Assembly: GCA_964629945.1 (NCBI GenBank)
Contig: CAZVTD010000002.1
Span: 1-54,541, forward strand
Origin: an uncultured Planctomycetota bacterium
Lineage (GTDB): Bacteria > Planctomycetota > DG-23 > DATKVD01 > CAZVTD01
Direction of reading: 5' to 3'
Length of the DNA stretch: 54,541 nt
Part shown: piece after piece, positions 20,495 to 49,584 of the stretch
Layout: the number at the start of each line of letters is the position of its first letter
How positions within the stretch are numbered: the stretch's first letter is position 1
Notes under the pieces: generated by a model
What the model saw: only the letters and a program-made list of their open reading frames with translations
What the model was told of the DNA's origin: nothing
Databases searched by the model: none
Translations under genes and position numbers: made by a program

Positions 20495-23400
20495 CGAACA
20501 CCTCCTCCGTCGCGGGCGTCACCTCGTCCTGTCGTCCCTCGCGTTCCCGCATCTTTCTCAGCGCGTTGCGATAATCCAGGGGCATCACTTTCACGAATCG
20601 CCCCACCATGTCCGTCCAGCTTTCCAGGACCCACTTGGCCCGTGCGCTGCCCGTCAGGGCCTCGTGCCGCTCCAGGCAGCTCCGCAGGAACTGGATGTCC
20701 TCCGGACGGTACACCGTCTCCAGATCCACCATGTCCAGGTTGCACAACGTGTCGAACAACTGGTTCTCATCCAGCACGTACGCGATGCCGCCGCTCATCC
20801 CGGCGGCGAAGTTGTGTCCGGTCGGTCCCAGGACCACCACGCGTCCCGCGGTCATGTATTCGCACGCGTGATCCCCGACGCCTTCCACCACCGCCAGGGC
20901 CCCGCTGTTGCGCACGCAGAAGCGCTCGCCCGCGATCCCGTTGATGAACACCTCGCCGGACGTCGCGCCATACAGGATGGTGTTCCCCGCGATCACGTTC
21001 TCAAACGCGCGGAACGCCGACTCCGTCGGCTTCTCCACCACGATGCGTCCACCCGAAAGCCCCTTACCGAGATAGTCGTTGCAGTCTCCGACCAGGTGCA
21101 GCGTCACCCCCGGCGCAAGGAACGCGCCGAAGCTCTGGCCCGCCGATCCGCGGAACGTGATCTCGATCGTCCCGTCGGGCAGACCCGCCGCACCATATCG
21201 CTTGACGATCCGATGACTCAGGATCGTCCCCACGGTCCGGTTCACGTTCCGGATCGGCATCTCCAGCGTCACCCGTTCCCGACGTTCCAGGGCCCCTTCC
21301 ACCTTCTCCAGGATCTGCCAATCGAGGTGGTCCGCCAGCTTGTCGGCCTGCGCCTTCACCCGGCGCACCGCCGGCTCGCCCTCGCGCGCCTTCGGCGGTG
21401 CAAGGATCCCGCCCAGGTCCAGCCCCTGTCGTTTCCAGTGGTCCAGTGCCTTGCGCATCACCAGCCGCTCGACGTGTCCCACCATGTCGTCGAACGTCCG
21501 GAAGCCGAGTTCCGCCATCCACTCCCGGACCTCCTCGGCCACGAACATCATGTAATTCACCAGGTGTTCGGGCTTACCGACGAAGTTTTTGCGAAGTTCC
21601 GGAAGCTGCGTGGCGATTCCCGCCGGGCACGTCCCGTGATGACATTTCCGGACCAGCACGCAGCCCAGCGTCACCAGCGCCGAGGTCCCGAACCCGAAGC
21701 GTTCCGCACCCAGAAGCGCTCCGATCACCACGTCCCGACCCGTCCGCAGTTGTCCGTCCACCTGAAGCAGAACGCGGTCCCGCAGTCCGTTGGCGACCAG
21801 CGTCTGCTGGGTTTCCGCCAGTCCCAGTTCCCACGGACAACCCGCGTGCCGAATGCTCGAAAGCGGACTGGCCCCCGTGCCTCCGTCGCCTCCCGAAATC
21901 AGGATTTCATCCGCGTTGCCCTTGGCCACGCCCGCCGCCCCCGTGCCCACGCCGCCCTCGCTCACCAGTTTCACCGAGATCATCGCCGCCGGGTTGGCGC
22001 ATCGCAGGTCATAGATCAACTGTGCCAGGTCCTCGATCGAGTAGATGTCGTGATGGGGAGGCGGAGAAATCAGCGACACCCCGGGCGTCGCGTGACGCAG
22101 CCTCGCGATCTCCTCGGTCACCTTGTGGCCCGGCAGGTGTCCCCCTTCGCCGGGCTTGGCCCCCTGGGCCATCTTGATCTGGATCATCCGCGCGTGCGCC
22201 AGGTACTGCGCCGTCACTCCGAACCGTGCGCTGGCCACCTGCTTGATGCCGCAGTTCGCCGAATCCCCCTCACCCGTCGCCAGATATCGCCCCGGGTCCT
22301 CCCCGCCCTCACCGGTGTTGCTGTAACTGCCCAGGCGGTTCATCGCCCGAGCCATCGTCTCGTGTGCCTCGGCCGAAATCGATCCGTGCGACATCGCACC
22401 CGTCACGAACCGCTTCACGATCTCACCGGCGCTCTCCACCTCCTCCAGCGGAACCTTCTCGCCCGGCGTCAACTCGAACAGTCCCCTCATCGTGCACAGT
22501 CGTTCGGACTGCTCGTTGATCAGTTTCGCGAACTGACGGTACTTTGCCGCGTCCCCCTCGCGCACCGCCTGCTGCAGAAGCGTCACCGTCTCCGGACTCC
22601 ACAGGTGCTTCTCGCCGTCCTTCCGATACTGGTACTCCCCACCGAACCCCAGCGCCGGCTCGCCGGGCCGACGTTCCTGATACGCGTACGCGTGCCGGCG
22701 AAGCGTTTCCTCGGCGATCTCTTTCAGACCCACGCCGCCGATTCGGCTGGACGTCCCCGCGAAATACCGGTCCACCACGTCGCGACGGATCCCGATGCAC
22801 TCGAACATCTGTGCCGACCGGTAACTCCGCAGCGTCGAAACCCCCATCTTCGACATCACCTTCAGCAGTCCCTTCTTGAGGGCCGTCACGTAGTTGTCCA
22901 CCACGCGCGTCGCTTCCAGGCTTCCCGGCAGGATGCCCTTCCGACGCAAGTCCGACAGCGTCTCCAGTGCCAGGTACGGGTTCACCGCGTTCGCCCCGAA
23001 GCCCATCAGCAGAGCGATGTGCATCACCTCCCGGGCCTCGCCCGTTTCCACCGCCAGCCCCGCTTCGCCCCGCAGGTTGTGGTCCAGAAGACCGTGGTGC
23101 ACCGCCGAGACGGCCAGCAGGCTCGGAATCGGCGCCTTCTCGACACGATCGCAGCGGTCCGACAGGATCACCAGCGACGCCCCGTCGGCGATCGCCTTTT
23201 CCACGTCCCGCTGAAGCTCAGCCAGCCCGTGCTCCAGGGCCGCCCCTGCGTCTCGGCTGTTCGCGTCGAACAGTGCCGGGACCGTCGCGACCTTGTAATA
23301 ATCCCGGTGCGTCCCGCGAAGACGTCCCATGTCGTCGTTCGTCAGAATCGGATGGGGCAGCTTCAACTGCCGGCAATGTTCGGGCGTCTCCGACAGCAGG

Positions 23401-25058
23401 TTCTGCCGCTTCCCCGCGAACGTCATCAGCGACATTACCAGCCCTTCCCGCAGGGGATCGATCGGCGGGTTCGTCACCTGCGCGAACAACTGCTTGAAGT
23501 AGTCGAACAGCAGCCTCGGCCGTTCCGAAAGGATCGCCAGAGGCGTGTCCGTCCCCATCGACCCCAGCGGCTCCTGTCCATCCGCCGCCATCGGCTTCAG
23601 CACCACCTCCAGCTCTTCCCGCGTGTACCCGAACTCCCGCTGCCTGCGCACGAGCGTCGCCTCATCCGTCTTCTGTTCGCGCGACGCGTCGAACAACCCC
23701 CGCAGCTCGATCCGGTTCTCCTCCACCCACCTGCGATACGGACGCTGCCGGCTCATCTTGCTCTTGATCTCGTTGTCCGTGATGATCCGACCGGAAACCG
23801 TGTCCACCAGGAACATCTTCCCGGGCTGAAGTCGTCCCTTCTGCTTCACCTGGTGGGGCGCAAACTCCACCACCCCCGTCTCGCTGCCCAGAACCACCAG
23901 TCCGTCCGTCGTCACCACGTACCGTGACGGCCTCAGTCCGTTCCGGTCCAGCGTTCCCACCACCAGCCGCCCGTCCGTGGCCACCATCGCCGCCGGACCG
24001 TCCCAGGGCTCCATGATCGACGCGTGATATTCATAGAACGCCCGCTTGTCCGTGCTCATGTGATACCGTGTCCCGAACGCTTCCGGGATCATCATCATCA
24101 GGGAATGGGGCAGTGCCCGTCCCGCCCTCACCAGGAGTTCCAGACAGTTGTCGAACTGCGCCGAGTCGCTGGTGCCGGGCGTCAACACCGGAAACAGGTC
24201 GCTCAGGTCTTCCGACAGCAGCGGACACACCACCCGGCGTTCACGGGCGCGCATCCGGTTGATGTTCGCGCTCAGCGTGTTGATCTCGCCGTTGTGTGCC
24301 GCCATCCGGAAGGGCTGCGCCAGACGCCAGTTCGGGAATGTGTTCGTGCTGTACCGCTGATGAACCAGGGCCAGCGCCGTCACCACGCGCTCGTCCACCA
24401 GGTCCGGGTAATACGCGAACAACTGGTGTGCGAAGAACATCCCCTTGTAGACGAGGGTCCGGCACGACTGACTGGACACGTAGAAATCCGTCGCGGCTTT
24501 GCCCAGGCGCTCCCGCACCAGGCGTTCCGCCCGCTTGCGTGCCATGTACAGCCGACGCTCCAGCTGCTCGTCGTGCAGTCCGCACCCGTCGATGAAGACC
24601 TGCTTGATGCTCGGCTCGGCCTGCCGGGCGATCTCACCCAGAGACCGGTTGTCCGAAGGCACGTCACGCCAGCCCAGCACCTTTAACCCGTAGTGCTCCG
24701 CCGCCGTGACCAGCGCCAGGTCACACTGATGCTGGATTTCCGCGTCCTGACGCGGACCGAACACCATCCCCACCCCGTAACTCCCCCGCCGACACAGCCT
24801 GAAACCCACACGGTCCGCTTCATCGAGCAGGAACTCGTGTGGAAGCTGGATCAGAATCCCCGCACCGTCTCCGGTCTTCTCGTCCGCCCCGGCGGCACCC
24901 CGATGCCGCAGGTTCAGCAGCACTTCCCTGGCCCGCTCGACCACCGCGTGGTCCCGCCGACCCGACACATTCACCACCGCACCTACCCCGCAGGCGTCGT
25001 GCTCCCGCCTGGCTTCGTACAGTCCCTCACCCTCAGGAGCCCTTGGTCCTTTATCCAT
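20487..25058 (-). CDS. gltB: glutamate synthase large subunit
   Basis: 1523 aa. It has the N-terminal amidotransferase Cys in HDACGVGAVV, followed by central, FMN and C-terminal GXGXG-type domains throughout. Confidence 0.95.
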   Translation of the reverse strand: MDKGPRAPEGEGLYEARREHDACGVGAVVNVSGRRDHAVVERAREVLLNLRHRGAAGADEKTGDGAGILIQLPHEFLLDEADRVGFRLCRRGSYGVGMVFGPRQDAEIQHQCDLALVTAAEHYGLKVLGWRDVPSDNRSLGEIARQAEPSIKQVFIDGCGLHDEQLERRLYMARKRAERLVRERLGKAATDFYVSSQSCRTLVYKGMFFAHQLFAYYPDLVDERVVTALALVHQRYSTNTFPNWRLAQPFRMAAHNGEINTLSANINRMRARERRVVCPLLSEDLSDLFPVLTPGTSDSAQFDNCLELLVRAGRALPHSLMMMIPEAFGTRYHMSTDKRAFYEYHASIMEPWDGPAAMVATDGRLVVGTLDRNGLRPSRYVVTTDGLVVLGSETGVVEFAPHQVKQKGRLQPGKMFLVDTVSGRIITDNEIKSKMSRQRPYRRWVEENRIELRGLFDASREQKTDEATLVRRQREFGYTREELEVVLKPMAADGQEPLGSMGTDTPLAILSERPRLLFDYFKQLFAQVTNPPIDPLREGLVMSLMTFAGKRQNLLSETPEHCRQLKLPHPILTNDDMGRLRGTHRDYYKVATVPALFDANSRDAGAALEHGLAELQRDVEKAIADGASLVILSDRCDRVEKAPIPSLLAVSAVHHGLLDHNLRGEAGLAVETGEAREVMHIALLMGFGANAVNPYLALETLSDLRRKGILPGSLEATRVVDNYVTALKKGLLKVMSKMGVSTLRSYRSAQMFECIGIRRDVVDRYFAGTSSRIGGVGLKEIAEETLRRHAYAYQERRPGEPALGFGGEYQYRKDGEKHLWSPETVTLLQQAVREGDAAKYRQFAKLINEQSERLCTMRGLFELTPGEKVPLEEVESAGEIVKRFVTGAMSHGSISAEAHETMARAMNRLGSYSNTGEGGEDPGRYLATGEGDSANCGIKQVASARFGVTAQYLAHARMIQIKMAQGAKPGEGGHLPGHKVTEEIARLRHATPGVSLISPPPHHDIYSIEDLAQLIYDLRCANPAAMISVKLVSEGGVGTGAAGVAKGNADEILISGGDGGTGASPLSSIRHAGCPWELGLAETQQTLVANGLRDRVLLQVDGQLRTGRDVVIGALLGAERFGFGTSALVTLGCVLVRKCHHGTCPAGIATQLPELRKNFVGKPEHLVNYMMFVAEEVREWMAELGFRTFDDMVGHVERLVMRKALDHWKRQGLDLGGILAPPKAREGEPAVRRVKAQADKLADHLDWQILEKVEGALERRERVTLEMPIRNVNRTVGTILSHRIVKRYGAAGLPDGTIEITFRGSAGQSFGAFLAPGVTLHLVGDCNDYLGKGLSGGRIVVEKPTESAFRAFENVIAGNTILYGATSGEVFINGIAGERFCVRNSGALAVVEGVGDHACEYMTAGRVVVLGPTGHNFAAGMSGGIAYVLDENQLFDTLCNLDMVDLETVYRPEDIQFLRSCLERHEALTGSARAKWVLESWTDMVGRFVKVMPLDYRNALRKMREREGRQDEVTPATEEVFGV

Positions 25059-28244: not shown

Positions 28245-28757
28245 GTGGCGAAAATCTTTGCACGAAAGGAAGGCGAAAACGTGAGTGAGATTGATGTGGG
28301 CACGATATTGGCCGGTTTTCCGAATGCGGGTCGTGATGACCTGATTCCGATCCTGCAGGTCATGCAGGAGCGATGCGGCTATCTTTCGCACGAGGTGGTG
28401 CGACAAGTGGGACGTCACCTGAACCTGCCGGCCAGCAAGGTGTATGGTGTGGCGACGTTCTACAACCAGTTCCGGTTCCAGCCGATCGGCCGGCAGCACG
28501 TCCAGGTGTGTCGGGGGACGGCGTGTCACGTGAAGGGTTCGCTTGAGCTTCTGGAGACGATCGAAGGTGAGCTGAAGATCAAGCCCGGACACACGACGCG
28601 GGACGGGATGTTCAGTCTGGAAGTGGTGGCCTGCCTGGGAGCGTGTGGACTTTCGCCCGTCATGTGTGTCAACGGGGAGTTCCACGCACGCATGACCCCG
28701 GCGAAGGCCAGAACACTCATCGAGGGTCTGCGCAAGGAGGAGGTAGTGACCGCATGA
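28245..28757 (+). CDS. NuoE-like [2Fe-2S] subunit (HydC/HndA type) of a multimeric [FeFe] hydrogenase
   Basis: YGVATFYNQFRFQPIGRQHVQVCRGTACHVKG...VVACLGACGLSPVMCVNG shows the thioredoxin-like 2Fe-2S Cys pattern. The stop overlaps the next start (ATGA). Confidence 0.85.
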   Translation: MAKIFARKEGENVSEIDVGTILAGFPNAGRDDLIPILQVMQERCGYLSHEVVRQVGRHLNLPASKVYGVATFYNQFRFQPIGRQHVQVCRGTACHVKGSLELLETIEGELKIKPGHTTRDGMFSLEVVACLGACGLSPVMCVNGEFHARMTPAKARTLIEGLRKEEVVTA

Positions 28758-31700
28758 GCAAAGCAAATGAAACATTGACCGGACCGGCGGATCATCCCCA
28801 CGTGGCGGACAGCATCGTGATGGAGTATCTGCGTGCGGAGGGTGTGACGCGCACGGCGGAGCACCGTGAGCACATGGAGCGTCTGCGGCGCGAGGACGTG
28901 ACGGTTCCGACGATCTACGTTGGCACAGGGACGTGCGGGCTGGGAGCGGGTGCAGGCAAGGTCCTCAAGGCGATCAAGGCCCACCTGGCGGACAAGAGGA
29001 TCAAGGCAGAGATCGTCGAGGTCGGCTGCGTGGGTCTGTGTGCGTTCGAGCCGGTGATGGACGTGCAGGTCCCGGGACGGCACCGCGTGTCGTTCATGGA
29101 AGTCACCGAGGAGAACGCCGGGAAGATCATCGACGCGATGCTCGCCGGCCAGGTTCCGGAAGAGAACCTGATCGGTCAGTTTCGTTCGTCCAAGACGCAG
29201 GCGTGGGACAACGTGGCCTACCTAGACGAGCATCCGTTCTTCAAGCCCCAGCTGCGGTGGGTTCTGGAGCACAGCGGGATCATCGAGCCGACGAGCATCG
29301 AGGAGTACATCGCGCGGGGCGGCTATCTGACGCTGCTGAAGGCCGTGCGGACCTGGACCCGGGAAGAGATCTGCGACATCATCGAGAAGAGCGGGCTGCG
29401 GGGCCGAGGCGGCGGCGGCTTCCCGACCGGAAAGAAGTGGAAGTTCGCGCTCAAGGAAGCCAGCGACCAGAAGTATCTCATCTGCAACGCCGACGAAGGC
29501 GATCCCGGCGCGTTCATGGACCGTGCGCTGATCGAAAGCGACCCGCACCGACTGCTCGAGGGCATGATGCTGGCCGCGTATGCCATCGGAGCCAACAAGG
29601 CGTACGTGTACATCCGTGCGGAGTATCCGCTGGCCATCCGCCGGCTCAAGACGGCGATCGCCCAGGCCCGTGCATACGGTCTGGTGGGCGAGGACATCAT
29701 GAAGAGCGGTTTCGCGCTGGAGTTCGTGATCAAGATGGGAGCGGGTGCGTTCGTGTGCGGTGAGGAAACGGCGCTCATCCACAGCATCGAGGGGAAGCGC
29801 GGCATGCCGAGACCGAGACCGCCTTATCCGGCGGTGTCGGGTCTGTTCGGGAAGCCCACGGTGATTAACAACGTGGAGACCCTGGCGAACGTTCCGGCGA
29901 TCGTGCGCAACGGTGCGGCCTGGTTTGCCGGCGTGGGGACCGAGAAGAGCAAGGGCACGAAGATCTTCGCCCTGTCGGGGAAGGTCAACCGGACGGGACT
30001 GGTCGAGGTGGCGATGGGCACGACCATCCGCCAGGTGGTCTTCGACATCGGCGGCGGCATCCCGGGAGGCAAGGCCTTCAAGGCGGTGCAGATCGGTGGC
30101 CCGTCGGGCGGATGTCTTCCGACACAACTGCTGGACACGCCAATCGACTACGAGTCGGTGAAGTCGGCCGGCGCGATCATGGGCTCGGGCGGACTGGTGA
30201 CGCTGGACGAGACGACGTGCATGGTGGACCTGGCGAAGTTCTTCCTGCAGTTCGTTCAGAACGAGAGCTGCGGGAAGTGCATCCCCTGTCGCGAGGGGAC
30301 CAAGCGGATGCTCGAGATCCTGGAAGGGATCACGCGTCCCGCGCACCAGGAGCGCGACATGGACGCTCTCACGCGATTCCAGGGCGTGCTGCGTCTGAAG
30401 AACCTCGCCGAGATGATCCGTCAGACGAGCCTGTGCGGACTCGGACAGACGGCACCCAGTCCCGTGCTGAGCACACTGCGGTGGTTCCGAGACGAGTATG
30501 AAGCTCACGTGTTCGAGCGACGCTGTCCGGCGGGGGCCTGCAAGGATCTCGTGGGGGCGGTGTGCCAGAACGCGTGTCCGGTGGGGACGGAAGTGTGGCG
30601 TTACGTGGCGCACGTGGCCCGCGGGGAATACGAGGACGCTTACCGGACGATCCGCAGTGCGAACCCGTTCCCGTCGGTCTGCGCGCGCGTGTGCAACCAT
30701 CCGTGCGAGGCATATTGCCGGGCGGGTGCAACCGGTGGAGAGGCGATCGCGGTCCGGACCCTGAAGCGTTTCGTGGTGGATCATGTGTCCCCGAGCGCGT
30801 TCTTCGAGGAAGTCAAGCCCGCAGCCGCCGACGCCCCACGCATTGCCGTGGTGGGCGCCGGACCGGCGGGTCTCACCGCGGCACATCAACTGAGCAAGCT
30901 GGGCTTCCTGGTGACGATCTTCGAGCGCGAATCCGTGGCGGGTGGGATGCTGAGAGCAGGCATCCCGGCGTACCGGCTGCCCCGGGCACGCCTGGAGGAG
31001 GAGATCGAGCTGCTGCTGAACGGGAACGTGGAGCTGAAGCTGAACCAGGAACTGGGGAAGGACTTCACGGTCGATTCGCTGCTGAAGCAGGGATACAAGG
31101 CGGTGTATCTGGCGATGGGTGCGCACGCCAGCCGGAAGCTGGGTGTTCCGGGTGAAGACGTCGATGGCGTCATCCACGGCATCCGCTTCCTGAAGGCCTT
31201 CAACCTGGCGGGCAAGTCCCTGGCCAAGGGCAAGGTGGGCATCATCGGTGGCGGGAATTCCGCGCTGGACGCGGCCCGTGTGGCGATTCGTCAGCAGGGC
31301 GTCGAGGCGGTCACGATCTACTATCGTCGGACACGTCACGAGATGCCGGCGTATGCCGAGGAGATCGAGGCGGCGCTGGAGGAAGGCGTCCAGCTGAAGA
31401 CGCTGGTGTCTCCGGTCGAAGTGCTGTCCAAGGGAGGCAAGCTCACGGGTGTGAAGTTCCTCAAGAACGAGCTGGGTCCCGCGGACGCCAGTGGACGGCG
31501 AAGTCCCGTGCCGGTTCCGGGCACGGAGTATGTCGAGGAGATGGACACGCTGATCGTGGCCATCAGTGAGAACCCGGAGACGACGGCCGTCGACGGTGGA
31601 CTGAAGCGGAGTCGCGACGGACGGGTGACGGTGAGCTCGGAGTCGCACGCGACGGACCGTGAAGGCGTCTTCGCGGGTGGCGACGTCGTGAGAGGTCCCA

Positions 31701-31996
31701 ACACGGTGATCGAGGCCATCGCGGACGGGAAGCACGCGGCCCGCATGATCTACAATTACGTGACGGGTCGGCTGCTGAAGACGCTTCCGAAGGTCCGCAT
31801 GCCGAGCTTTTACATCGAGCCTCTGGAGGAAGAGGAAGAGCCTCCGGTCAACCGGATCGCCTCTCCCACGCTCGGTGTTTCGGAGCGACGCGGGAACTGT
31901 GATGAAGTGGAGTTGTGTGTTTCGGAAAGCGCCGCGCGTTGCGAAGCGAGGCGGTGTCTGCGCTGCGACCTGAGCTTCACGCAGCCGAGGTCATGA
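28754..31996 (+). CDS. fusion protein: NuoF-like flavoprotein (HydB type; NADH/FMN/4Fe-4S) joined to a GltD/NfnB-like FAD-NAD(P)H oxidoreductase module
   Basis: N-terminal half: GLRGRGGGGFPTGKKWKF, ICNADEGDPGAFMDR, ESCGKCIPCREG. From about 30.5 kb: CPAGAC...CQNACP...ANPFPSVCARVCNHPCEAYC, IAVVGAGPAGLTAAHQL, VGIIGGGNSALDAARVA. Start ATG 28754 (MSKANETL). Confidence 0.85.
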   Translation: MSKANETLTGPADHPHVADSIVMEYLRAEGVTRTAEHREHMERLRREDVTVPTIYVGTGTCGLGAGAGKVLKAIKAHLADKRIKAEIVEVGCVGLCAFEPVMDVQVPGRHRVSFMEVTEENAGKIIDAMLAGQVPEENLIGQFRSSKTQAWDNVAYLDEHPFFKPQLRWVLEHSGIIEPTSIEEYIARGGYLTLLKAVRTWTREEICDIIEKSGLRGRGGGGFPTGKKWKFALKEASDQKYLICNADEGDPGAFMDRALIESDPHRLLEGMMLAAYAIGANKAYVYIRAEYPLAIRRLKTAIAQARAYGLVGEDIMKSGFALEFVIKMGAGAFVCGEETALIHSIEGKRGMPRPRPPYPAVSGLFGKPTVINNVETLANVPAIVRNGAAWFAGVGTEKSKGTKIFALSGKVNRTGLVEVAMGTTIRQVVFDIGGGIPGGKAFKAVQIGGPSGGCLPTQLLDTPIDYESVKSAGAIMGSGGLVTLDETTCMVDLAKFFLQFVQNESCGKCIPCREGTKRMLEILEGITRPAHQERDMDALTRFQGVLRLKNLAEMIRQTSLCGLGQTAPSPVLSTLRWFRDEYEAHVFERRCPAGACKDLVGAVCQNACPVGTEVWRYVAHVARGEYEDAYRTIRSANPFPSVCARVCNHPCEAYCRAGATGGEAIAVRTLKRFVVDHVSPSAFFEEVKPAAADAPRIAVVGAGPAGLTAAHQLSKLGFLVTIFERESVAGGMLRAGIPAYRLPRARLEEEIELLLNGNVELKLNQELGKDFTVDSLLKQGYKAVYLAMGAHASRKLGVPGEDVDGVIHGIRFLKAFNLAGKSLAKGKVGIIGGGNSALDAARVAIRQQGVEAVTIYYRRTRHEMPAYAEEIEAALEEGVQLKTLVSPVEVLSKGGKLTGVKFLKNELGPADASGRRSPVPVPGTEYVEEMDTLIVAISENPETTAVDGGLKRSRDGRVTVSSESHATDREGVFAGGDVVRGPNTVIEAIADGKHAARMIYNYVTGRLLKTLPKVRMPSFYIEPLEEEEEPPVNRIASPTLGVSERRGNCDEVELCVSESAARCEARRCLRCDLSFTQPRS

Positions 31997-33786: not shown

Positions 33787-34257
33787 ATGAAACAGGGTGA
33801 CGAAAACAAAAACAAAGGACTGACGATGAACCAAGCGAAGAAGAAAATTCTGGTGGTGGACGACGATCCGGACATTATCGTACAGCTGAAGGCCCTCCTG
33901 GATCAGGAGTACGTGGTGGAGACGGCCCCCCCGGGGGCCGAGGCGGAGGAGATCCTCATGGGTTCGCGTCCGGATCTGGCGATCATCGACCTGATGATGG
34001 AGACGCGTGACTCCGGCTTTATGCTGTGTCACAACATCAAGCGACTGTATCCCGGGACCCCCGTCATGATGCTGACGGGAGTCAAGGCCACCACGGGCAT
34101 GTCGTTCACGGCCGGACCGGGTGAAGAAGACTCGTGGTTCGAGGCCAACCTTCTGCTGGACAAGCCTGTGCGTCCCGATCAGCTCCGCAGGGACGTTCGG
34201 CGACTTCTGAGCAAGGATCCACAGGCGAAGAAGGAAGGGGCTCATAAGAAAGGGTGA
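33787..34257 (+). CDS. stand-alone response-regulator receiver (REC) protein
   Basis: KILVVDDDPDII...PDLAIIDLMME...VMMLTG...LLDKPVRPDQL. There is no output domain. The start could be ATG 33826 or GTG 33769. Confidence 0.8.
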   Translation: MKQGDENKNKGLTMNQAKKKILVVDDDPDIIVQLKALLDQEYVVETAPPGAEAEEILMGSRPDLAIIDLMMETRDSGFMLCHNIKRLYPGTPVMMLTGVKATTGMSFTAGPGEEDSWFEANLLLDKPVRPDQLRRDVRRLLSKDPQAKKEGAHKKG

Positions 34258-36287
34258 GGGGACGTCGAGAAAAGGACGCAGGCGTCATGGGCGCGACCCG
34301 GTTTGTAGAGACCATCAAAGAGCGCTGCAGGATGTGCTACACGTGCGTGCGCGAGTGCCCTGCCAAGGCGATCCGGATTGTTGAGGGACAGGCCGAGGTG
34401 ATGGGGGAGCGGTGCATCGCCTGTGGAAACTGTGTGCGGGTCTGTTCCCAGAAGGCCAAGCAGGTCGTGCACTCGGTGAAGGAGGTGGAGGACCTTCTTG
34501 CGGGGGACGTCGACGTCGCGGCCATCCTGGCACCGAGCTTCCCGGCGGAGTTTGCCGAATGCGACTACGAACGGGTCGTCGGGATGCTCCGGGCGCTGGG
34601 GTTCACCTACGTTAACGAAGTGGCCTTCGGTGCAGACCTGGTGGCCGACTGGTACCGACGCACGCTGCAGAACGGGGATTCCTCCCGTCAGATCGCAACG
34701 GCTTGTCCGGCGGTCGTGGCCTACGTGGAGAAGCACCAGCCGGACCTGATCAAGAGTCTGGCCCCGGTCGTTTCGCCCATGATCGCGACGGCACGAGCCC
34801 TGCGACAGATCCACGGACCGGCACTCCGGGTGGTCTTCATCGGTCCCTGCGTGGCCAAGAAGGCGGAGATGCAAAGCTCTCCCGTTTCCGGAGAGGTCGA
34901 CGCCGTCCTGACCGTCGTCACCCTGCGCGAGATGCTGAAGGCACATGATCTCACCCCGGAAAGTGTATCGCCCAGTGATTTCGACGAGCCTCGGGGAGGG
35001 TTGGGCGCCCTCTTCCCCATCAGCCGGGGAATGCTGCAAGCCGCGGGACTCAACGAGAACCTCATGAACGGGGAGGTCGTCACCACGGAGGGTCGGACGA
35101 ACTTCGTGGAAGCCCTGGAGGAATTCCCCCGTGGCGACGTTCGGACCCGGCTGCTCGAAGTCCTGGCCTGTCAGGGATGCATTCTCGGTCCGGGCATGAG
35201 CCACCGGACGCCCCTGTTTTCGGCACGGGCCCGCGTCGCACACTACGTGACGGAACGGACCAAACGACAGGACCTGGAAGCCTGGCGCAAGCAGGTGGAG
35301 AGCTTCAGGAACCTGGACCTCGCCCGCACGTACGAGGCGAGTGATCAGCGAATCTGGCCCCCAGAGGAGCACGAGATCCAGCAGATCCTCATCAACATGG
35401 GGAAGAAGTCCATCCAGGATGAGCTGAACTGCGGGGCATGCGGATACGACACCTGTCGCGAGCACGCCGTGGCGATCCACCGGGGACTGGCCGAGAGCGA
35501 GATGTGTCTGCCTTACACCATCGACCAGCTTCGCAAGACGATCCAGGACCTTGCGGTCACAAACGATCGTCTGGCGAATACCCAGGCGGCACTGATCCAG
35601 TCCGAGAAACTGGCCAGCATGGGACAACTGGCCGCCGGGATCGCCCACGAGGTAAACAACCCCCTGGGTGTCGTCCTCATGTATGCCCATCTCCTTCAGG
35701 ACGAACACGGGAAGGATCCCACGATGGCGGCCGACCTCGACATGGTTGTCCGTCAGGCGGACCGCTGTCGCAAGATCGTCGCCGGACTGCTTCATTTCGC
35801 CCGTCAGAACAAGGTGGTCAGGGAGCCGACGGACGTTCGGAAGCTGGTGGAGGAGACCCTCCGTGCCTTGAGTCCACCCGACAACGTCCAGGTGGTCATC
35901 GACTGTCAGATGAAGGACCCGATCGCTGAGCTGGACCATGACCAGACCTGTCAGATGCTGACCAACCTGATCACCAACGCCTACGCGGCCATGAGCGATC
36001 GGAACGGGACCCTCACGGTGCTCATCGAAGAGAAGGGAGATGACGTGCTGTTTTCGGTCATCGACACCGGTGTGGGGATCAAGCCGGAGCACATGTCGAA
36101 GATCTTCGAGCCGTTCTTCACCACCAAGCAAATCGGCAAAGGCACCGGACTGGGACTGGCGATAACGTACGGGATCGTTAAGATGCACCGTGGGGATATT
36201 TCGGTGAAATCCAATGCGGACCCTGCCAAGGGGCCGACGGGCACAACATTTACCGTGAGGCTGCCCCGCAAGGGGCAGGAGGATTGA
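34254..36287 (+). CDS. [FeFe]-hydrogenase-like sensory domain fused to a histidine kinase (HydS-like, kinase-linked)
   Basis: Two ferredoxin motifs (CRMCYTCVRECP, CIACGNCVRVC). H-domain-like motifs ATACPAVV, GPCVAKKAE, LACQGCILGPG. CGACGYDTC-N16-C motif. Then a coiled linker and the kinase boxes GIAHEVNNPLG (H), LTNLITNAYAAM (N), DTGVGI, GKGTGLGLAI. Alternative start ATG 34287. Confidence 0.85.
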   Translation: MRGRREKDAGVMGATRFVETIKERCRMCYTCVRECPAKAIRIVEGQAEVMGERCIACGNCVRVCSQKAKQVVHSVKEVEDLLAGDVDVAAILAPSFPAEFAECDYERVVGMLRALGFTYVNEVAFGADLVADWYRRTLQNGDSSRQIATACPAVVAYVEKHQPDLIKSLAPVVSPMIATARALRQIHGPALRVVFIGPCVAKKAEMQSSPVSGEVDAVLTVVTLREMLKAHDLTPESVSPSDFDEPRGGLGALFPISRGMLQAAGLNENLMNGEVVTTEGRTNFVEALEEFPRGDVRTRLLEVLACQGCILGPGMSHRTPLFSARARVAHYVTERTKRQDLEAWRKQVESFRNLDLARTYEASDQRIWPPEEHEIQQILINMGKKSIQDELNCGACGYDTCREHAVAIHRGLAESEMCLPYTIDQLRKTIQDLAVTNDRLANTQAALIQSEKLASMGQLAAGIAHEVNNPLGVVLMYAHLLQDEHGKDPTMAADLDMVVRQADRCRKIVAGLLHFARQNKVVREPTDVRKLVEETLRALSPPDNVQVVIDCQMKDPIAELDHDQTCQMLTNLITNAYAAMSDRNGTLTVLIEEKGDDVLFSVIDTGVGIKPEHMSKIFEPFFTTKQIGKGTGLGLAITYGIVKMHRGDISVKSNADPAKGPTGTTFTVRLPRKGQED

Positions 36288-36311
36288 GGTCCGGACCCAA
36301 GGAGGCCTGTC

Positions 36312-36689
36312 ATGGCAAAGGTATTGCTGGTGGATGACGACGAGGACCTGGTGACGATGAACAGGAAAGTCCTGGAAGCACGGGGACACCAGGTGCTGAG
36401 CGCCTTCTCGGGAAAGGAAGCGCGTGAGGTTCTGAAGAAAGAAGCCCCGGACGTGGCGGTCCTGGACGTGATGATGGAGTCGCTCAGCGCGGGTTTTGAA
36501 CTCGCACGAGAGATGAATCGAACCCACCCGAAAATGCCGATACTGATGTTGTCGGGCATCGAGGAAAAGACGGGTCTCGGTTTCAAGGGGCTCGAGGACG
36601 ACCAGTGGCTCCCCGTTTTCAGGTTCATCGATAAGCCGCTTTCACCCGACAAATTGGCTGAAAAGGTGGAAGAAGTCCTGAAGAAGTGA
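36312..36689 (+). CDS. stand-alone response-regulator receiver (REC) protein, paralogous to 33787-34257
   Basis: KVLLVDDDEDLV...PDVAVLDVMME...ILMLSG...FIDKPLSPDKL. Confidence 0.85.
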   Translation: MAKVLLVDDDEDLVTMNRKVLEARGHQVLSAFSGKEAREVLKKEAPDVAVLDVMMESLSAGFELAREMNRTHPKMPILMLSGIEEKTGLGFKGLEDDQWLPVFRFIDKPLSPDKLAEKVEEVLKK

Positions 36690-45158: not shown

Positions 45159-47276
45159 TCAGTCGTGCACGGTCGTGTCGTAGCGGACCCCCTCGGGCAC
45201 CGGAACCGGGACGTTGACCGTGGTCCCGGAGTCGCCCGCGGTCCGCGAAAGCGCATCGACCGCCACGAACGCCGTAAAGGCCGAAACCAGGTTGTGCTGC
45301 AGCGCGACCTTGCGAATCTCCCGCTCCGGCGAACCGCCCGAACGCAGCAGGGCCTGGTTCGACAGGTCGGCAATCTTCATCCGTGCCCACACCTTGTCGA
45401 GTCCCGGATGCTGGCCGTCCGCCACCACCGGCACGTCGAACTGGACTGTGCGCCTGCTCGACTTTCCGCCCACCCGGACCGTGGCGTTCCCCTCCGGAGC
45501 TTTGAACCGCCCGGTAAGGACCACCGGTCGTCCGACGAACAGGTCCGGAACCTGTCGCGGATAAACGTCCTCCACCTTCATCCCGCCCCAGTCGATCTGG
45601 ATGTCCGTCAGCGCCGGGTGACGGATGCGCTCATAGAAAAGGTCCACCGTCTTCACCGCCCCCTCGTCCAGATTCACATCAGCCACCGCCCCGCGTCCCA
45701 TCAGCGCCATGTTTTCGAGCAGATAGCGGTTGGGCGACTCACCCACGCCGAATGAGAAAATCCGCGTCTCCCCCAGACGCTTGCCGATCTCGCCCAGGAT
45801 TTCCGTTTCGTTGCCGATGTAGCCGTCCGTCATAAACGAGACCAGCCGGAGCCGTTCCGGGTTGTGCGGAAAATCCAGTGCCGCGCGGATGCCGTTGATC
45901 ATCATCGTCCCGCCGCCCGGCTTCAGCGACTCCACGTAACGAACTCCCCGGGCGATGTTTTCGCGCGTCGCGGGCAGTGGCGCAGGTCCAAGCGTCGAGG
46001 AGGATTCCGAGAACGAGATCACCTGGAACGTGTCGTCACGATCGAGCCGGCGGAGCGCACGTGTGACGGCGTCTTTGGCCAGATTGAGCGGTTTGCCCTG
46101 CATCGAACCCGAACAGTCGATCACGAAAACCATCTCCACTGGGTCGCGCACCAACTGGGCCGACGCGTCGGGCGGCTGCAGCATCAGCGTGAAGTATCCT
46201 CCTGTCGGATCGGTATGCGCAAGGAACACGCTCTTGATCCCCTCACCCGCCACCTTGTAGCGCAGGATGAAGTCCCGGTTGGGAATCGCGTCATTTTCCG
46301 ACAGCTTCACCGCCGCGTGGCGTCCGTCGGGCCGCGTTACACCGACCACGTGCGATGGACAGGCGACCGCCTCGATGGGCACCCCGGCGTCCAGGTCCAC
46401 GAACAGGCTGATGTCATGCCCGGAGCGTTGACGCGGACGCAAATACCCCACCTCTGTCTTCTGGCCGGACCGTCCTCGTGCGCGGGCCCCCACTGCTCCG
46501 ACACCCTCTGTGCTCCCCGGCGGGTTGAATCGCGGACCGACCACCATCGGAAACGTATATTCATACCACCCGTCCACGCACGCCAACGTGTGGAAGTAAC
46601 GGATGTTGACCTCGATCTCCTTCGCCGGTTCGATGTTGGCGACTCGCTGTGTGAAAATATTCGGACGCTCCTGCGTCAGAAGCGAGGCCACGTGCCCTTG
46701 CTTACGTGCCTCGTAGTAGATTTTCTCCGCCTCCTCGCGCTCGCGGATGATCCCGCGGATGCGACGCGTGCCCACCGTCATGAGAAAATCATGCACCGCC
46801 GCGTTGGTCGGAAGCGGAAACACATATGCCGCCTCAATCTTCGAGCCGTACGGATTGCTGAAGGTCTGGGTGACGTCCACCGACGCCACGTACGCGGAAA
46901 TGCGCGTCTTCACGTCCGTGTGCTTGAGCGGGACGGGCACCTCCTCTTCAGCATCCGGAAGCTTCACCATCATCGACCCGCAGCCCGGCACGTCGTCCCC
47001 CGGAGCCGACGACTCCGGACGCACGACGACCCACAACTCCTCTCCAGGACGCAGAAGCGTCGCGTCAAGCGCAGAATATCCCGTCTTGATGGCGGGGGAC
47101 CCGGAAACAGGAGCCCAATGAAACGACCCGTCCTCCCGTGTCGCGCTCGACTCTCCTGCCTGCCTGGTTGCTTGTGGAGCCTCCTGCGGCATGGCCCCGC
47201 AGCCGACAAGAAAAGCCATTACCACAACACATGACATCCCCAGCCCGGCGAGCAAGACGAGACCTGCTCTTCTCAT
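45159..47276 (-). CDS. VIT + von Willebrand factor A domain lipoprotein
   Basis: Lipobox MAFLVGCG. VIT-like KTRISAYVASVDVTQTFSNPYGSKIEAAYVFPLPTNAAVHDF. The vWA MIDAS start VFVIDCSGSMQG is followed by ...ISFSESS. Confidence 0.85.
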   Translation of the reverse strand: MRRAGLVLLAGLGMSCVVVMAFLVGCGAMPQEAPQATRQAGESSATREDGSFHWAPVSGSPAIKTGYSALDATLLRPGEELWVVVRPESSAPGDDVPGCGSMMVKLPDAEEEVPVPLKHTDVKTRISAYVASVDVTQTFSNPYGSKIEAAYVFPLPTNAAVHDFLMTVGTRRIRGIIREREEAEKIYYEARKQGHVASLLTQERPNIFTQRVANIEPAKEIEVNIRYFHTLACVDGWYEYTFPMVVGPRFNPPGSTEGVGAVGARARGRSGQKTEVGYLRPRQRSGHDISLFVDLDAGVPIEAVACPSHVVGVTRPDGRHAAVKLSENDAIPNRDFILRYKVAGEGIKSVFLAHTDPTGGYFTLMLQPPDASAQLVRDPVEMVFVIDCSGSMQGKPLNLAKDAVTRALRRLDRDDTFQVISFSESSSTLGPAPLPATRENIARGVRYVESLKPGGGTMMINGIRAALDFPHNPERLRLVSFMTDGYIGNETEILGEIGKRLGETRIFSFGVGESPNRYLLENMALMGRGAVADVNLDEGAVKTVDLFYERIRHPALTDIQIDWGGMKVEDVYPRQVPDLFVGRPVVLTGRFKAPEGNATVRVGGKSSRRTVQFDVPVVADGQHPGLDKVWARMKIADLSNQALLRSGGSPEREIRKVALQHNLVSAFTAFVAVDALSRTAGDSGTTVNVPVPVPEGVRYDTTVHD

Positions 47277-47304
47277 TCGTTACCTCCTTGCGACAGAAAA
47301 TCCG

Positions 47305-48048
47305 TCACCGTGATGCCGTCCGGGAGGCCAGCACAACCTCCGCGATCAAACGCCTGCAGCCGGTCTGCAGATCCTTCAAACTCTTCTCGGTGGTTTGCTT
47401 GACGATCTTCTCCTCGCCCACCGAAGTCCACGCGGCGGGCGTCGTCCGTCGGTGTTCGTCCTCGCCCGTCGCCGTCCCCAGCACCGCACCCGTTCGCGAA
47501 TCCACCAGCACCGCCTGGCACACCGTCCGGTGTTCCAGGTCCGTCCCGGGAACCACCCACAACCCCACGATCGTCCAATACAGAATCGACGCCCCGTTCA
47601 GGTTCTCCAGGTCCCGGTCGTCCTGAAGATAAACCAGAAGCAGTTCGCAGTTCTGCGTCCCGGCCGCCTCGCGCAGACTCTTCAGCGAAATTCGCTTATC
47701 CTTCTCCGAAAGACTGATAGCAACGGGCACGATCGGCTGCACCCCTGTGATCAGGGGCTCATCCGCAACCACCTTCTCCCACGAATGCAACTCCTCCGCC
47801 CCGATCGTCTCCACGTACGGACCGCTGTAGTTCGTCCCCAGCTTCGCGATGGCAAGGTTCGTGGGAAGTTTCGCCCGCACACGGGCATCCAGCCGCGTCG
47901 CGATGTCACGATCCGTAAAGGCCTGCTCCGGACACTCCGCCATGGCCGATGCCATCGGGTTAGACGGGAATCGGCTCATGCTGTGATGTGTCTCGCAGCC
48001 GGCCAACACGAGAACCAGGACCAGCGTCGAACCGGTCAGTATCTTCAT
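47305..48048 (-). CDS. lipoprotein, unknown function
   Basis: Lipobox LVLVLAGCE. Its start overlaps the upstream gene stop by 4 nt. Confidence 0.65.
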   Translation of the reverse strand: MKILTGSTLVLVLVLAGCETHHSMSRFPSNPMASAMAECPEQAFTDRDIATRLDARVRAKLPTNLAIAKLGTNYSGPYVETIGAEELHSWEKVVADEPLITGVQPIVPVAISLSEKDKRISLKSLREAAGTQNCELLLVYLQDDRDLENLNGASILYWTIVGLWVVPGTDLEHRTVCQAVLVDSRTGAVLGTATGEDEHRRTTPAAWTSVGEEKIVKQTTEKSLKDLQTGCRRLIAEVVLASRTASR

Positions 48049-48485
48049 TCACGTTCTCCTTGGGTCTGAACGGAAACGGTTGCAGGAATTGGTTTGCCGT
48101 CGATCGAGCCAGCGGTAACCAGTTTGGCCTCATACTTCGGTTCCACACCCCCGGAAACCTGCACGTGCACGCGGGCCACGCGAACCCGTCCGTGCGGCAG
48201 GTCCTTCCCCGTCGAGAACGCCGCCAGGATCACGCGGTCGTTGGCCATCGCCGCAGGATCATAATAAGGCGGCTCGACAAACGCGGGATGCTCACCCCCC
48301 TCGATGCCCACGATCTCAACGGAGCCTGCCTTCGTCACCATCTCCACCTGCCAGGCCGCCAGCGGCGTATCTCCCGAATCGACCAGGACATCGATCGTCG
48401 TGAACCGCACCGGAACCGCTTCCTGTGCCGGACTGCCGGAAACCAGACAGGTGAAAATGAGTGCGAGCGCGAGGATCCGTTTCAT
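48045..48485 (-). CDS. small secreted protein, cohesin-like beta-sandwich pattern (tentative)
   Basis: Signal peptide MKRILALALIFTCLVSGSPAQE. LAAWQVEMVTKAGSVEIVGIEGGE...RVILAAFS...GRVRVARVHVQV resembles the alternating-strand pattern of cohesin modules. Has 4-nt overlaps with both neighbours. Confidence 0.6.
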   Translation of the reverse strand: MKRILALALIFTCLVSGSPAQEAVPVRFTTIDVLVDSGDTPLAAWQVEMVTKAGSVEIVGIEGGEHPAFVEPPYYDPAAMANDRVILAAFSTGKDLPHGRVRVARVHVQVSGGVEPKYEAKLVTAGSIDGKPIPATVSVQTQGERE

Positions 48486-48973
48486 CGATACACTCCCGGG
48501 CTCAAACTGACCGCTGCTTGTGCGATCAACGTCACGTCGTCCGAATCGATGCGACCGTCGTGGTTCAGGTCCGCACGCGGATCGGGCTCACGCCGATCGC
48601 GAAGGTCTCGCGCCACGGCAAACGCGTCCAGAATGTCCACACGACCGTTGTGGTCGATGTCTTCCCGCAGGGGAACACCGGCGTAGTTCTGACGCACCTC
48701 ACCGGGTTCCTGACGCCCTTGTTGATAGGGCCACAGAAGAAGGACCGCCACCAGCAGCCCCGCGGCGGCCGCCGAACCCACCGCCCAACGCAGCACCCAC
48801 CGCCGTCGTCCACGCCTCCCGGAAAGACGCATTCGGGCAAGATCAAGAATCCGATGATCGACCCCTTGAGGAACGGGAACCTCGCGGTCATAAAGTTGAC
48901 GCAGGTCGCGTTCAAGCTGCCCGCCCTCGATGGATTGAAGTCGATCATCATGTGCCTTATTTTCAGGGTCCAT
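48482..48973 (-). CDS. putative anti-sigma factor: short cytoplasmic N-terminus, one TM helix, extracytoplasmic pair of dockerin-type calcium-binding repeats
   Basis: Lies immediately downstream of the ECF sigma gene. TM segment WAVGSAAAAGLLVAVLLLW. Repeats DIDHNGRVDILDAF and DLNHDGRIDSDDV. ATG 48973 is preceded by GGAG. Confidence 0.65.
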   Translation of the reverse strand: MDPENKAHDDRLQSIEGGQLERDLRQLYDREVPVPQGVDHRILDLARMRLSGRRGRRRWVLRWAVGSAAAAGLLVAVLLLWPYQQGRQEPGEVRQNYAGVPLREDIDHNGRVDILDAFAVARDLRDRREPDPRADLNHDGRIDSDDVTLIAQAAVSLSPGVYR

Positions 48974-49032
48974 GACTTTCTCCAACCTGTTAAGCGAACG
49001 AAAGGACGAAAAGGTTCATCAAAAAACGGAAT

Positions 49033-49584
49033 TCATTCCCCCAGGAAGTAATCCCGGGTTCCGGGATCCTCTCTGAGTATCGCCAAAGCGTTATGGAGCC
49101 GGGACTTGACCGTCCCCAGAGGCAGCTCCAATGCCAGCGCGATCTCCTGCAGCGACATCCCGTCCAGAAACCGCATGAGCAGCACTTCGCGCTGCGGAGC
49201 CGAAAGACGCCCCAGGACACGGGAAAGATCTTCCGGATAAGGTTCGGAGGTTGCCCCCTCCTCTGGAGCCGGCACCACGGCCAGCAGGTCGTCATCGCTG
49301 ACCAGTCGCCGGCGGCGGCGCAGCACCGCGATCGAAAGGTTCCGCACGACCGGATATAGAAACGTGCTGAGGCGTGCCGTCAGATGAAAACCCGGAAAAC
49401 GGTCCAGGAACCACGTGAACGTCTCCTGCAGAACGTCGAGCGCGTCGTGATGATCGCGGGTGAAACGGAACGCCAGGCGGACCACCCAGTCCCGGTGACG
49501 CGCGTACAGCACCTCGAAAGCGGCGACCTCCCCGCGGTTCAGCGCCTCGACAAGATCGTGGTCCGACCGGGAATCCGGCTGCAT
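49033..49584 (-). CDS. ECF-type RNA polymerase sigma factor
   Basis: Region 2: FEVLYARHRDWVVRLAFRFTRDHHDALDVLQETF. Region 4: MSLQEIALALELPLGTVKSRLHNA. I prefer start ATG 49584 (MQPDS...). Confidence 0.85.
   Translation of the reverse strand: MQPDSRSDHDLVEALNRGEVAAFEVLYARHRDWVVRLAFRFTRDHHDALDVLQETFTWFLDRFPGFHLTARLSTFLYPVVRNLSIAVLRRRRRLVSDDDLLAVVPAPEEGATSEPYPEDLSRVLGRLSAPQREVLLMRFLDGMSLQEIALALELPLGTVKSRLHNALAILREDPGTRDYFLGE

Follow-up and report, generated by a model that had tools for sequence, protein, structure and literature searches.

The 54.5-kb stretch of Planctomycetota DNA analysed here, referred to at its full length as the window, carries on its minus strand, to which all module coordinates below refer, the genes of an extracytoplasmic function (ECF) sigma factor, a single-pass membrane protein resembling an anti-sigma factor, a secreted protein of 146 residues (p146) and a lipoprotein with VIT and vWA domains. 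The periplasmic part of the anti-sigma-like protein has been found to contain a type I dockerin, and p146 is predicted to adopt the fold of the cohesins, which is to our knowledge the sole fold that binds dockerins. We give a probability of roughly one half to the reading that the four genes constitute a signalling module in which p146 docks on the dockerin and shields the anti-sigma factor in an RseB-like manner. The module has been delineated from domain identities, predicted folds, gene order, translational coupling, conservation and one natural gene fusion. From the strict synteny of the two genes and from the fusion we infer, on an indirect basis, that p146 may bind the dockerin, and such a contact would control the activity of the sigma factor.

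Five co-directional genes span positions 45159-49584, coding for the ECF sigma factor, the anti-sigma-like protein of 163 residues, p146, a lipoprotein of 247 residues and the VIT-vWA protein of 705 residues, and the Joint Genome Institute has called identical genes where this locus recurs in two further metagenome contigs (183, 163, 146, 247 and 705 residues). The sigma gene (49033-49584, ATG at 49584) is separated by a gap of 59 nt from the anti-sigma gene (48482-48973), the ATG of which at 48973 is preceded by GGAG. The latter gene shares an ATGA stop/start overlap at 48482-48485 with the p146 gene (48045-48485), as the 4-nt overlap described in the initial annotation of this DNA had implied. 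When one genome per species was scanned by pattern, 292 loci with relatives of p146 were obtained, and all counts out of 80 refer to the 80 best of these, which belong to the Planctomycetia (Pirellulales, Planctomycetales, Fuerstiella), the Phycisphaerae (Sedimentisphaerales, Phycisphaerales) and the Brocadiia (Kuenenia). In 77 of them, the p146 start coincides with or closely follows the end of a homologue of the 163-residue protein, and in the three loci without it p146 stands at a contig edge; 74 of these 77 homologues have a transmembrane (TM) helix near residue 63 and, after it, two dockerin loops spaced by about 30 residues. Directly downstream of p146, a VIT-vWA homologue has been found in 71/80 loci, the other nine being without downstream sequence, and an ECF sigma orthologue (E 1e-40 to 1e-68) is adjacent in 62/80, with contig ends accounting for most of the others. 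Further recurrent neighbours such as a site-1 protease are absent from these loci, the clustering of flanking open reading frames (ORFs) having yielded only shadow ORFs of the module genes. As no other family recurs in the flanks, sigma factor, anti-sigma-dockerin protein, p146 and VIT-vWA protein form a self-contained four-gene envelope module, which is conserved across the Planctomycetota. The domain identities given by the initial annotation have thus stood, and its reading is to be extended by the VIT-vWA partner and the phylum-wide conservation, both of which it had missed. A typical planctomycetal module is also present in five loci (L005, L010, L014, L023, L032) that are labelled as 'uncultured Verrucomicrobiota' or 'Candidatus Thorarchaeota', probably as a result of mis-binning or mislabelling of contigs from metagenome-assembled genomes (MAGs).

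The 183-residue protein contains Sigma70_r2 and Sigma70_r4_2 as its sole Pfam domains and has scored 97.8 bits (cut-off 42.9) against the superfamily model for ECF sigma-70 factors (NCBIfam TIGR02937). With sigma-2 and sigma-4 regions only and a match to this model, it is an ECF (group 4) sigma-70 factor. A promoter search upstream of the sigma genes has found just a weak recurrent two-block pattern, AAGTG-N17-GTTC, in 10-11 of 57 regions from loci L001-L080; the pattern (TGAAG..TGGTTCAA) is probably clade-specific and could be an ECF promoter. In the upstream region of the window's own sigma gene TGAAG and GGTTC do occur, but not at the spacing of the N17 pattern. The protein encoded next comprises an N-terminal domain (residues 1-62), a TM helix at residues 63-81 (WAVGSAAAAGLLVAVLLLW, 48731-48787), a linker and the dockerin. 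Its single hydrophobic helix reaches a Kyte-Doolittle maximum of 2.05 at residue 63, and the AlphaFold2 (AF2) model shows one unbroken helix over residues 38-84. An Arg-rich segment ahead of the TM helix points to an N-in topology, and the protein presents in gene position and topology the features of a membrane-bound ECF anti-sigma factor, namely an adjoining ECF sigma gene, a single membrane passage and a cytoplasmic N-terminus. The N-terminal 62 residues may bind the sigma factor, as is suggested by the gene position and by a weak match to the NCBIfam model 'anti-sigma factor' (NF052375, E 0.0079, 16 bits, cut-off 100). Between TM helix and dockerin, linker residues 83-106 are weakly conserved and predicted to be disordered, with values of the predicted local distance difference test (pLDDT) below 50.

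The dockerin module occupies residues 104-151 (48521-48664) and has been recognised by Pfam Dockerin_1 (PF00404) with 30.9 bits against a gathering cut-off of 22.9 (E 3.3e-7), which bears out the earlier identification of two C-terminal EF-hand-like repeats as a dockerin. Besides the dockerin, the periplasmic part (approximately residues 82-163) contains only a linker of about 20 residues and a tail of 12, so that the extracytoplasmic part is, as the same annotation had it, entirely a dockerin. The two Ca loops, DIDHNGRVDILD (48626-48661) and DLNHDGRIDSDD (48536-48571), lie 30 residues apart, retain their D/N ligands at positions 1, 3, 5, 9 and 12, and are the sole motifs of this kind found by motif scan in the six-frame translation of the window. 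The dockerin helices are predicted at residues 114-126 and 144-155 in an AF2 model with a mean pLDDT of only 62 (alignment of 11 sequences), and 11 of the 13 PDB structures matched by Foldseek with this low-confidence model are dockerins, at E-values of ~2-8 that are not significant. PF00404 is a precomputed annotation in all of the 11 homologues found for the 163-residue protein. Among 7,675 ORF segments from the 80 loci, two or more strict dockerin loops occur only in the anti-sigma homologues, and their presence there is therefore not due to chance.

In type I dockerins, the residues that contact the cohesin are situated at repeat positions 10, 11, 14, 17 and 18, as known from structures of the 1OHZ and 2CCL class. 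The corresponding residues of repeat 1 are I114, L115, F118, A121 and R122, and they have been found to be near-invariant in 73 homologues, with entropies at the five positions of 0.10, 0.10, 0.21, 0 and 0.51 bit. The same positions of repeat 2 show entropies of 2.5, 3.1, 1.6, 0 and 2.6 bits, that is, the Ala at position 17 is invariant in both repeats and the other four contact positions of repeat 2 vary. Conserved contacts in repeat 1 combined with variable ones in repeat 2 are the pattern expected of a dockerin with a single binding mode and a conserved partner. The putative interface residues are invariant on the dockerin and on the p146 side.

The candidate partner p146 carries a Sec-type signal peptide (residues 1-21, 48423-48485), MKRILALALIFTCLVSGSPA followed by QE, and a domain of predicted cohesin fold at residues ~25-141 (48063-48413). 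The 146-residue sequence has no match in Pfam, in NCBIfam or among PDB sequences. Its family is a large one. A word-indexed search gave 326 matches, and an exhaustive profile search extended this to 1365 clusters (50% identity), of which 648 lie below 1e-30; roughly 200 distant members fall at E between 1e-10 and 1e-3. The AF2 model, calculated from an alignment of 51 sequences, is all-beta and of high confidence (mean pLDDT 91.6, predicted template modelling score 0.80). When it was compared with the PDB by Foldseek, the best-ranked matches were nearly all cohesins (probability 1.00, TM-scores 0.53-0.59, normalised to the full 146 residues, signal peptide included), and about 30 of the top 50 were cohesins, nearly all of them with probabilities of 0.9-1.00 and TM-scores of 0.46-0.59. 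The matched cohesins derive from at least eight organisms and comprise both cellulosomal representatives, of type I and type II, from Acetivibrio, Ruminiclostridium, Pseudobacteroides, C. acetobutylicum and Ruminococcus, and non-cellulosomal ones from Archaeoglobus and C. perfringens (2xdh, 2vo8, 2jh2); pilins, CBM2 and beta-sandwiches of adhesin domains rank below them. The cohesin fold is a nine-stranded beta-sandwich (jelly-roll), and p146 is predicted to adopt it in a form trimmed to seven predicted strands. The initial annotation had named the fold of this protein beforehand as the point at which its cohesin-like assignment could fail, and a cohesin-type sandwich has come out of AF2 and Foldseek; its claim of a cohesin-like secreted protein has accordingly been sustained for the predicted fold and not for the sequence, in which no similarity to cohesins has been detected. 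Some homologues (P0233 and P0173, loci L031 and L067) contain low-complexity insertions of 20-100 residues rich in Pro, Thr and Arg, which separate the LAAYQFEL strand from the VKIVGIEGGEH strand, and homologues from the Planctomycetaceae/Fuerstiella group possess N-terminal extensions of 30-70 residues after the signal sequence.

A natural fusion of the two proteins has been observed in the MAG GCA_040902585.1 (JBBDXA010000184.1, locus L081, 5001-6071), where a single ORF of 356 residues (P0213) contains in this order the anti-sigma N-domain, the TM helix, the dockerin, a non-hydrophobic linker of 65 residues and the p146 domain. An internal signal peptide is absent from it, and no alternative frame restores two genes. 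The ORF is flanked by an ECF sigma gene on one side and an intact VIT-vWA gene on the other, and its contig is otherwise intact as well. P0213 also has substitutions at otherwise near-invariant positions, with helix 1 reading IIDAYLLQR and two p146 strands reading LAVYQLD and ITGIEGGEH. A second apparent fusion, of dockerin, signal peptide and p146 (P0261, locus L084, ENA ERZ25039595 contig_9150), has been rejected as an assembly artefact, since the split genes of this contig (VIT-vWA in 4-5 pieces, split HisKA/HATPase) indicate indel errors.

The fourth member of the module (45159-47276) is a lipoprotein with the lipobox LVGC, in which Pfam has recognised a VIT domain (118.5 bits) and VWA_3 (55.8 bits), the latter with the metal ion-dependent adhesion site (MIDAS) motif DCSGS. 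Against TIGR03788 it has scored 472.7 bits, which is under the cut-off of 551.65, with nearly the full VIT-vWA profile aligned. The start of the VIT-vWA gene could be placed in 68 loci, and 57 of these 68 orthologues carry the MIDAS motif DxSxS. The N-termini of the VIT-vWA orthologues (L003-L080) are of two kinds, a lipobox (..AGC or ..LGC) or an uncleaved-looking signal anchor, and the anchors end in a recurrent LLxPSLxRxRE, which is reminiscent of the ends of planctomycetal prepilin-like (DUF1559-type) N-termini.

Taken together, we favour a mechanism in which the short cytoplasmic domain of the anti-sigma factor would hold the ECF sigma factor at the membrane, the Ca2+-binding dockerin alone being exposed to the periplasm. 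p146 would be translated from the same mRNA by ribosomes that restart at the ATGA overlap, and this stoichiometric product would be exported and fold into the cohesin-type sandwich. It could then dock onto the invariant hydrophobic face of dockerin helix 1 (I114, L115, F118, A121, R122), and in the bound state would shield the disordered juxtamembrane linker from site-1 proteolysis, as RseB does on RseA. Two routes to the loss of this complex are conceivable, and the signal would be whatever sets one of them in motion. Either the VIT-vWA protein might capture, compete for or remodel p146, the E62/E65/D76 loop of which would be a candidate for the acidic ligand that the MIDAS needs, or a fall of periplasmic Ca2+ would cause the dockerin to unfold. 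In both cases regulated intramembrane proteolysis of the anti-sigma factor would follow and set the sigma factor free. A more far-reaching version, which we hold only tentatively and consider somewhat doubtful, makes p146 the first representative of a cohesin family hidden from current profiles and universal in the Planctomycetota; a face of its sheet would lie on the dockerin and its acidic loop in the MIDAS of the VIT-vWA protein, and a ligand of the vWA domain or Ca2+ would bring about the release of the sigma factor.

Several results weigh against a docking of p146 on the dockerin and against its regulatory role. The Foldseek TM-scores of 0.53-0.59 are moderate, and the E-values, at 0.004 or above, are not significant alone. 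At the level of sequence, none of the 51 family members has matched Pfam Cohesin up to E = 10, a profile of the p146 family has found no match among PDB sequences, and hhalign has returned a probability of 0.2% for the family against both the CipA cohesin and an alignment of eight cohesin sequences. The cohesin probe in this comparison was a CipA sequence (1AOH-like at E 3e-88) and the cohesin profile a shallow one, as a database search seeded with the probe gave only 10 close CipA relatives; the resulting p146/CipA alignment pairs topologically equivalent strands, though without significance. As the sequence and profile comparisons were all negative, an assignment of p146 to Pfam PF00963 has been rejected, and the term cohesin is to be read for p146 as a statement about the fold only. 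Moreover, the most conserved part of p146 is an acidic and near-invariant loop, IEGGEHxAFxEPPYYDPAAM (with E62, E65 and D76), which is without a counterpart in cohesins and therefore suggests a function beyond dockerin binding. On the side of the membrane protein, no anti-sigma profile of Pfam or NCBIfam passes its threshold on the 163-residue sequence. The fusion of anti-sigma factor and p146 is a single case, and the sequence is present only in DNA runs, from anaerobic-digester metagenomes.

The loop and the missing sequence link to cohesins would also fit a different division of labour, in which p146 partners the VIT-vWA protein only, be it as its chaperone, by anchoring it or as the ligand of its MIDAS, and the dockerin binds another partner, such as an envelope glycan or a cohesin from another locus; p146 and VIT-vWA would then simply be the genes under control of the sigma factor, situated downstream of it as its regulon. 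Such an arrangement would agree with the spacing of the genes, as the 4-nt overlap is commoner between p146 and VIT-vWA (24 of the 68 loci in which the VIT-vWA start has been placed) than between the anti-sigma gene and p146, where 10 of 77 loci show -4 nt, another 10 show -1 nt and most others have short gaps. It would equally agree with the orientation of the sigma orthologues, which are mostly co-directional but divergent in the Planctomycetaceae/Fuerstiella group, leaving anti-sigma factor, p146 and VIT-vWA as a separate unit there. However, the gene of the dockerin-bearing anti-sigma factor and that of p146 are never found apart in the testable loci, the predicted fold of p146 is of the known dockerin-binding cohesin type, and the fused P0213 tethers p146 to the dockerin and not to VIT-vWA. 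Furthermore, no second cohesin or dockerin has been detected near the module, and in none of the loci does another ORF with two dockerin loops lie within 6 kb of p146. We therefore regard a p146 that serves VIT-vWA exclusively as unlikely.

A second alternative would dispense with a protein partner and treat the dockerin alone as a sensor of periplasmic Ca2+ or another divalent cation, which would be folded and protease-resistant in the Ca2+-bound state but would unfold and be degraded at low Ca2+, the cohesin resemblance of p146, a generic beta-sandwich, being convergent or meaningless. All ten Ca-ligand positions are indeed intact in the window protein and mostly conserved in its homologues, dockerins in general require Ca2+ for folding, weak Pfam EF-hand matches have been obtained at residues 134-147, and the Foldseek E-values of p146 are modest. 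Yet three lineages that lack the first Ca loop still keep the helix ILDAFxLAR, which argues for selection on the helix surface and not on Ca binding alone. The near-invariance of surface positions 10, 11, 14 and 18 of helix 1 would likewise be unneeded by a pure ion sensor, and the strict linkage to p146 would be left without explanation, so that we consider a sole Ca2+ sensor quite improbable.

Very improbable, finally, is that the 163-residue protein serves merely as an inner-membrane anchor, a minimal scaffold comparable to cellulosome anchoring whose dockerin tethers p146 and VIT-vWA while the ECF sigma factor, controlled by other means, does no more than drive transcription: conservation is weak over the N-terminal ~60 residues, anti-sigma profiles stay below threshold and the sigma gene is missing or divergent at some loci, but sigma orthologues adjoin in 62/80 with most others at contig ends, gene order and size fit classical sigma/anti-sigma pairs, NF052375 does match weakly, and the cytoplasmic part shows three helices predicted by AF2 and, ahead of the TM helix, the conserved motif vP...D.ail..A, a PxxD..IL..A pattern that is typical of anti-sigma factors.

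The remaining gene of the cluster, which stands between p146 and VIT-vWA in the window, encodes the 247-residue lipoprotein (47305-48048, lipobox LAGC) and overlaps with p146 by an ATGA at 48045-48048. Its match to the rhombotarget lipoprotein family TIGR04179 is weak and partial (41 bits, cut-off 150). Only 4/80 loci have a homologue, which in L002 takes the place it has in the window and in L004, L061 and L076 lies downstream of VIT-vWA, so that the gene is an accessory, rare insertion outside the conserved core. Directly downstream of VIT-vWA lies a gene for a PMT/ArnT-like membrane glycosyltransferase (PF02366/PF13231, 43089-45134, minus strand), which is conserved beside the module in none of the 80 related loci, and the window's flanking genes are in general without homologues in them. 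A search by sequence run has recovered the module sequence in anaerobic-digester metagenomes. A PADLOC scan for defence systems has given no match of note. Elsewhere in the window, two ORFs of 2094 residues (12719-19003, plus strand) and 761 residues (34242-36527, minus strand) have no Pfam match at E <= 1e-5, and are surrounded by housekeeping genes such as those for glutamate synthase (20487-25058) and a Nuo51/Pyr_redox fusion (28643-31996).

Among known systems, cohesin-dockerin pairs are familiar as the structural glue of extracellular enzyme complexes. The cellulosomal type I pairs (1OHZ, 2CCL, 2VN5) and the non-cellulosomal pairs from Clostridium perfringens (2VO8/2JH2) and Archaeoglobus (2XDH) share with the module the two F-hand Ca repeats, PF00404 and, on the side of p146, the predicted sandwich. 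The Ile-Leu pair at positions 10/11 of helix 1 in the window protein is hydrophobic, as in the Ala-Ile/Ala-Leu type of Clostridium cellulolyticum. In contrast to the cellulosome, the module contains neither carbohydrate-active enzymes nor a scaffoldin, its dockerin is carried by an anti-sigma factor in a Gram-negative periplasm, and its role would be one of signalling. p146 differs from cohesins in being shorter (~120 residues with seven predicted strands) and invisible to profiles, and the module dockerin in having a complete set of recognition residues in repeat 1 alone, from which a single mode of binding follows. If the proposed docking is true, a signalling role would be added to the cohesin-dockerin pair, which would become the first such pair in transmembrane signalling, and a function would be assigned to an unannotated family of > 1300 clusters. 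As a small system of a 60-residue dockerin and a 120-residue partner that is probably switchable by Ca2+, it would in that case also be a candidate for an orthogonal part in synthetic biology.

The Planctomycetota are reportedly rich in dockerins and poor in recognisable cohesins, and a cohesin-fold family that is missed by profiles bears on this puzzle; if the partnership with p146 is real, it might show where the partners of 'orphan' planctomycetal dockerins could be sought. Freshwater Planctomycetes have been proposed to degrade peptides with a 'planctosome' of Pfam-detectable cohesins and dockerins (PMC6461901), a context that, in difference to that of the module, is non-regulatory.

On the side of regulation, the known sensing devices of ECF anti-sigma factors include carbohydrate-binding modules (CBMs), TonB-box partners, RseB-like proteins and the binding of lysozyme. 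In Acetivibrio thermocellus, the RsgI proteins of the RsgI/SigI systems have been described as membrane anti-sigma factors with extracytoplasmic modules from the cellulosome toolbox (PMC10328401, PMC6056542), and the module protein would likewise be a membrane anti-sigma factor with an extracytoplasmic module of the cellulosome type. RsgI, however, pairs with sigma-I and carries CBM or sugar-binding modules besides an autoproteolytic periplasmic domain, whereas an ECF sigma factor and a dockerin are found here, and its ligand is a polysaccharide, where that of the module would be a co-encoded protein. The RsgI_N domain has found no match up to E = 1 in the module proteins, and the system is, as the initial annotation had proposed, conceptually related to RsgI and distinct from it.

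A link between vWA domains and ECF regulation has been reported for the anti-sigma factors of group ECF289, which occur as fusions with a vWA-DUF3520 region (Casas-Pastor et al. 2021, PMC7826278). There as here, an ECF anti-sigma factor has a vWA domain linked to it on the extracytoplasmic side, but in ECF289 this domain is part of the anti-sigma polypeptide, and in the module it belongs to a separate VIT-vWA lipoprotein, with a dockerin and a cohesin-fold adaptor in between; DUF3520 has no Pfam match in the module proteins. The 705-residue protein further resembles the marine proteobacterial sortase targets of TIGR03788 in its VIT and vWA domains and differs from them in that it ends in ...GVRYDTTVHD, lacking LPXTG and a C-terminal anchor or TM segment, and bears an N-terminal lipobox instead, and no sortase gene is located near it. 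If the module is correctly interpreted, it would tie the VIT-vWA proteins of bacteria, which are still poorly understood, to the regulation of genes.

The closest parallel in working, and in working only, is given by RseA/RseB (MucA/MucB). An anti-sigma factor that is bound by a periplasmic protein from its own operon follows the logic of this pair, so that only the pair of modules used is new, and the 'new signalling principle' announced in the initial annotation was overstated with regard to a logic that is already known. The searchable literature (including PMC7826278, PMC6461901 and PMC11557425), in which some sources on planctomycete ECF factors fall outside the scope, has revealed no dockerin-bearing anti-sigma factor and no such module. 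Both systems share the order of sigma factor, single-pass anti-sigma factor and secreted periplasmic protein, and the gating of site-1 proteolysis of the anti-sigma factor by the periplasmic protein, which is established for RseB, is what we propose for p146. Nevertheless, they are not homologous, as the MucB_RseB and RseA domains of Pfam have not been found in the module proteins. The periplasmic domain of RseA differs from a folded Ca2+ module, and RseB, built of two domains, senses lipid or lipopolysaccharide, whereas in the module the interface would be one of dockerin and cohesin fold, to which the VIT-vWA protein would be added as a third periplasmic member.

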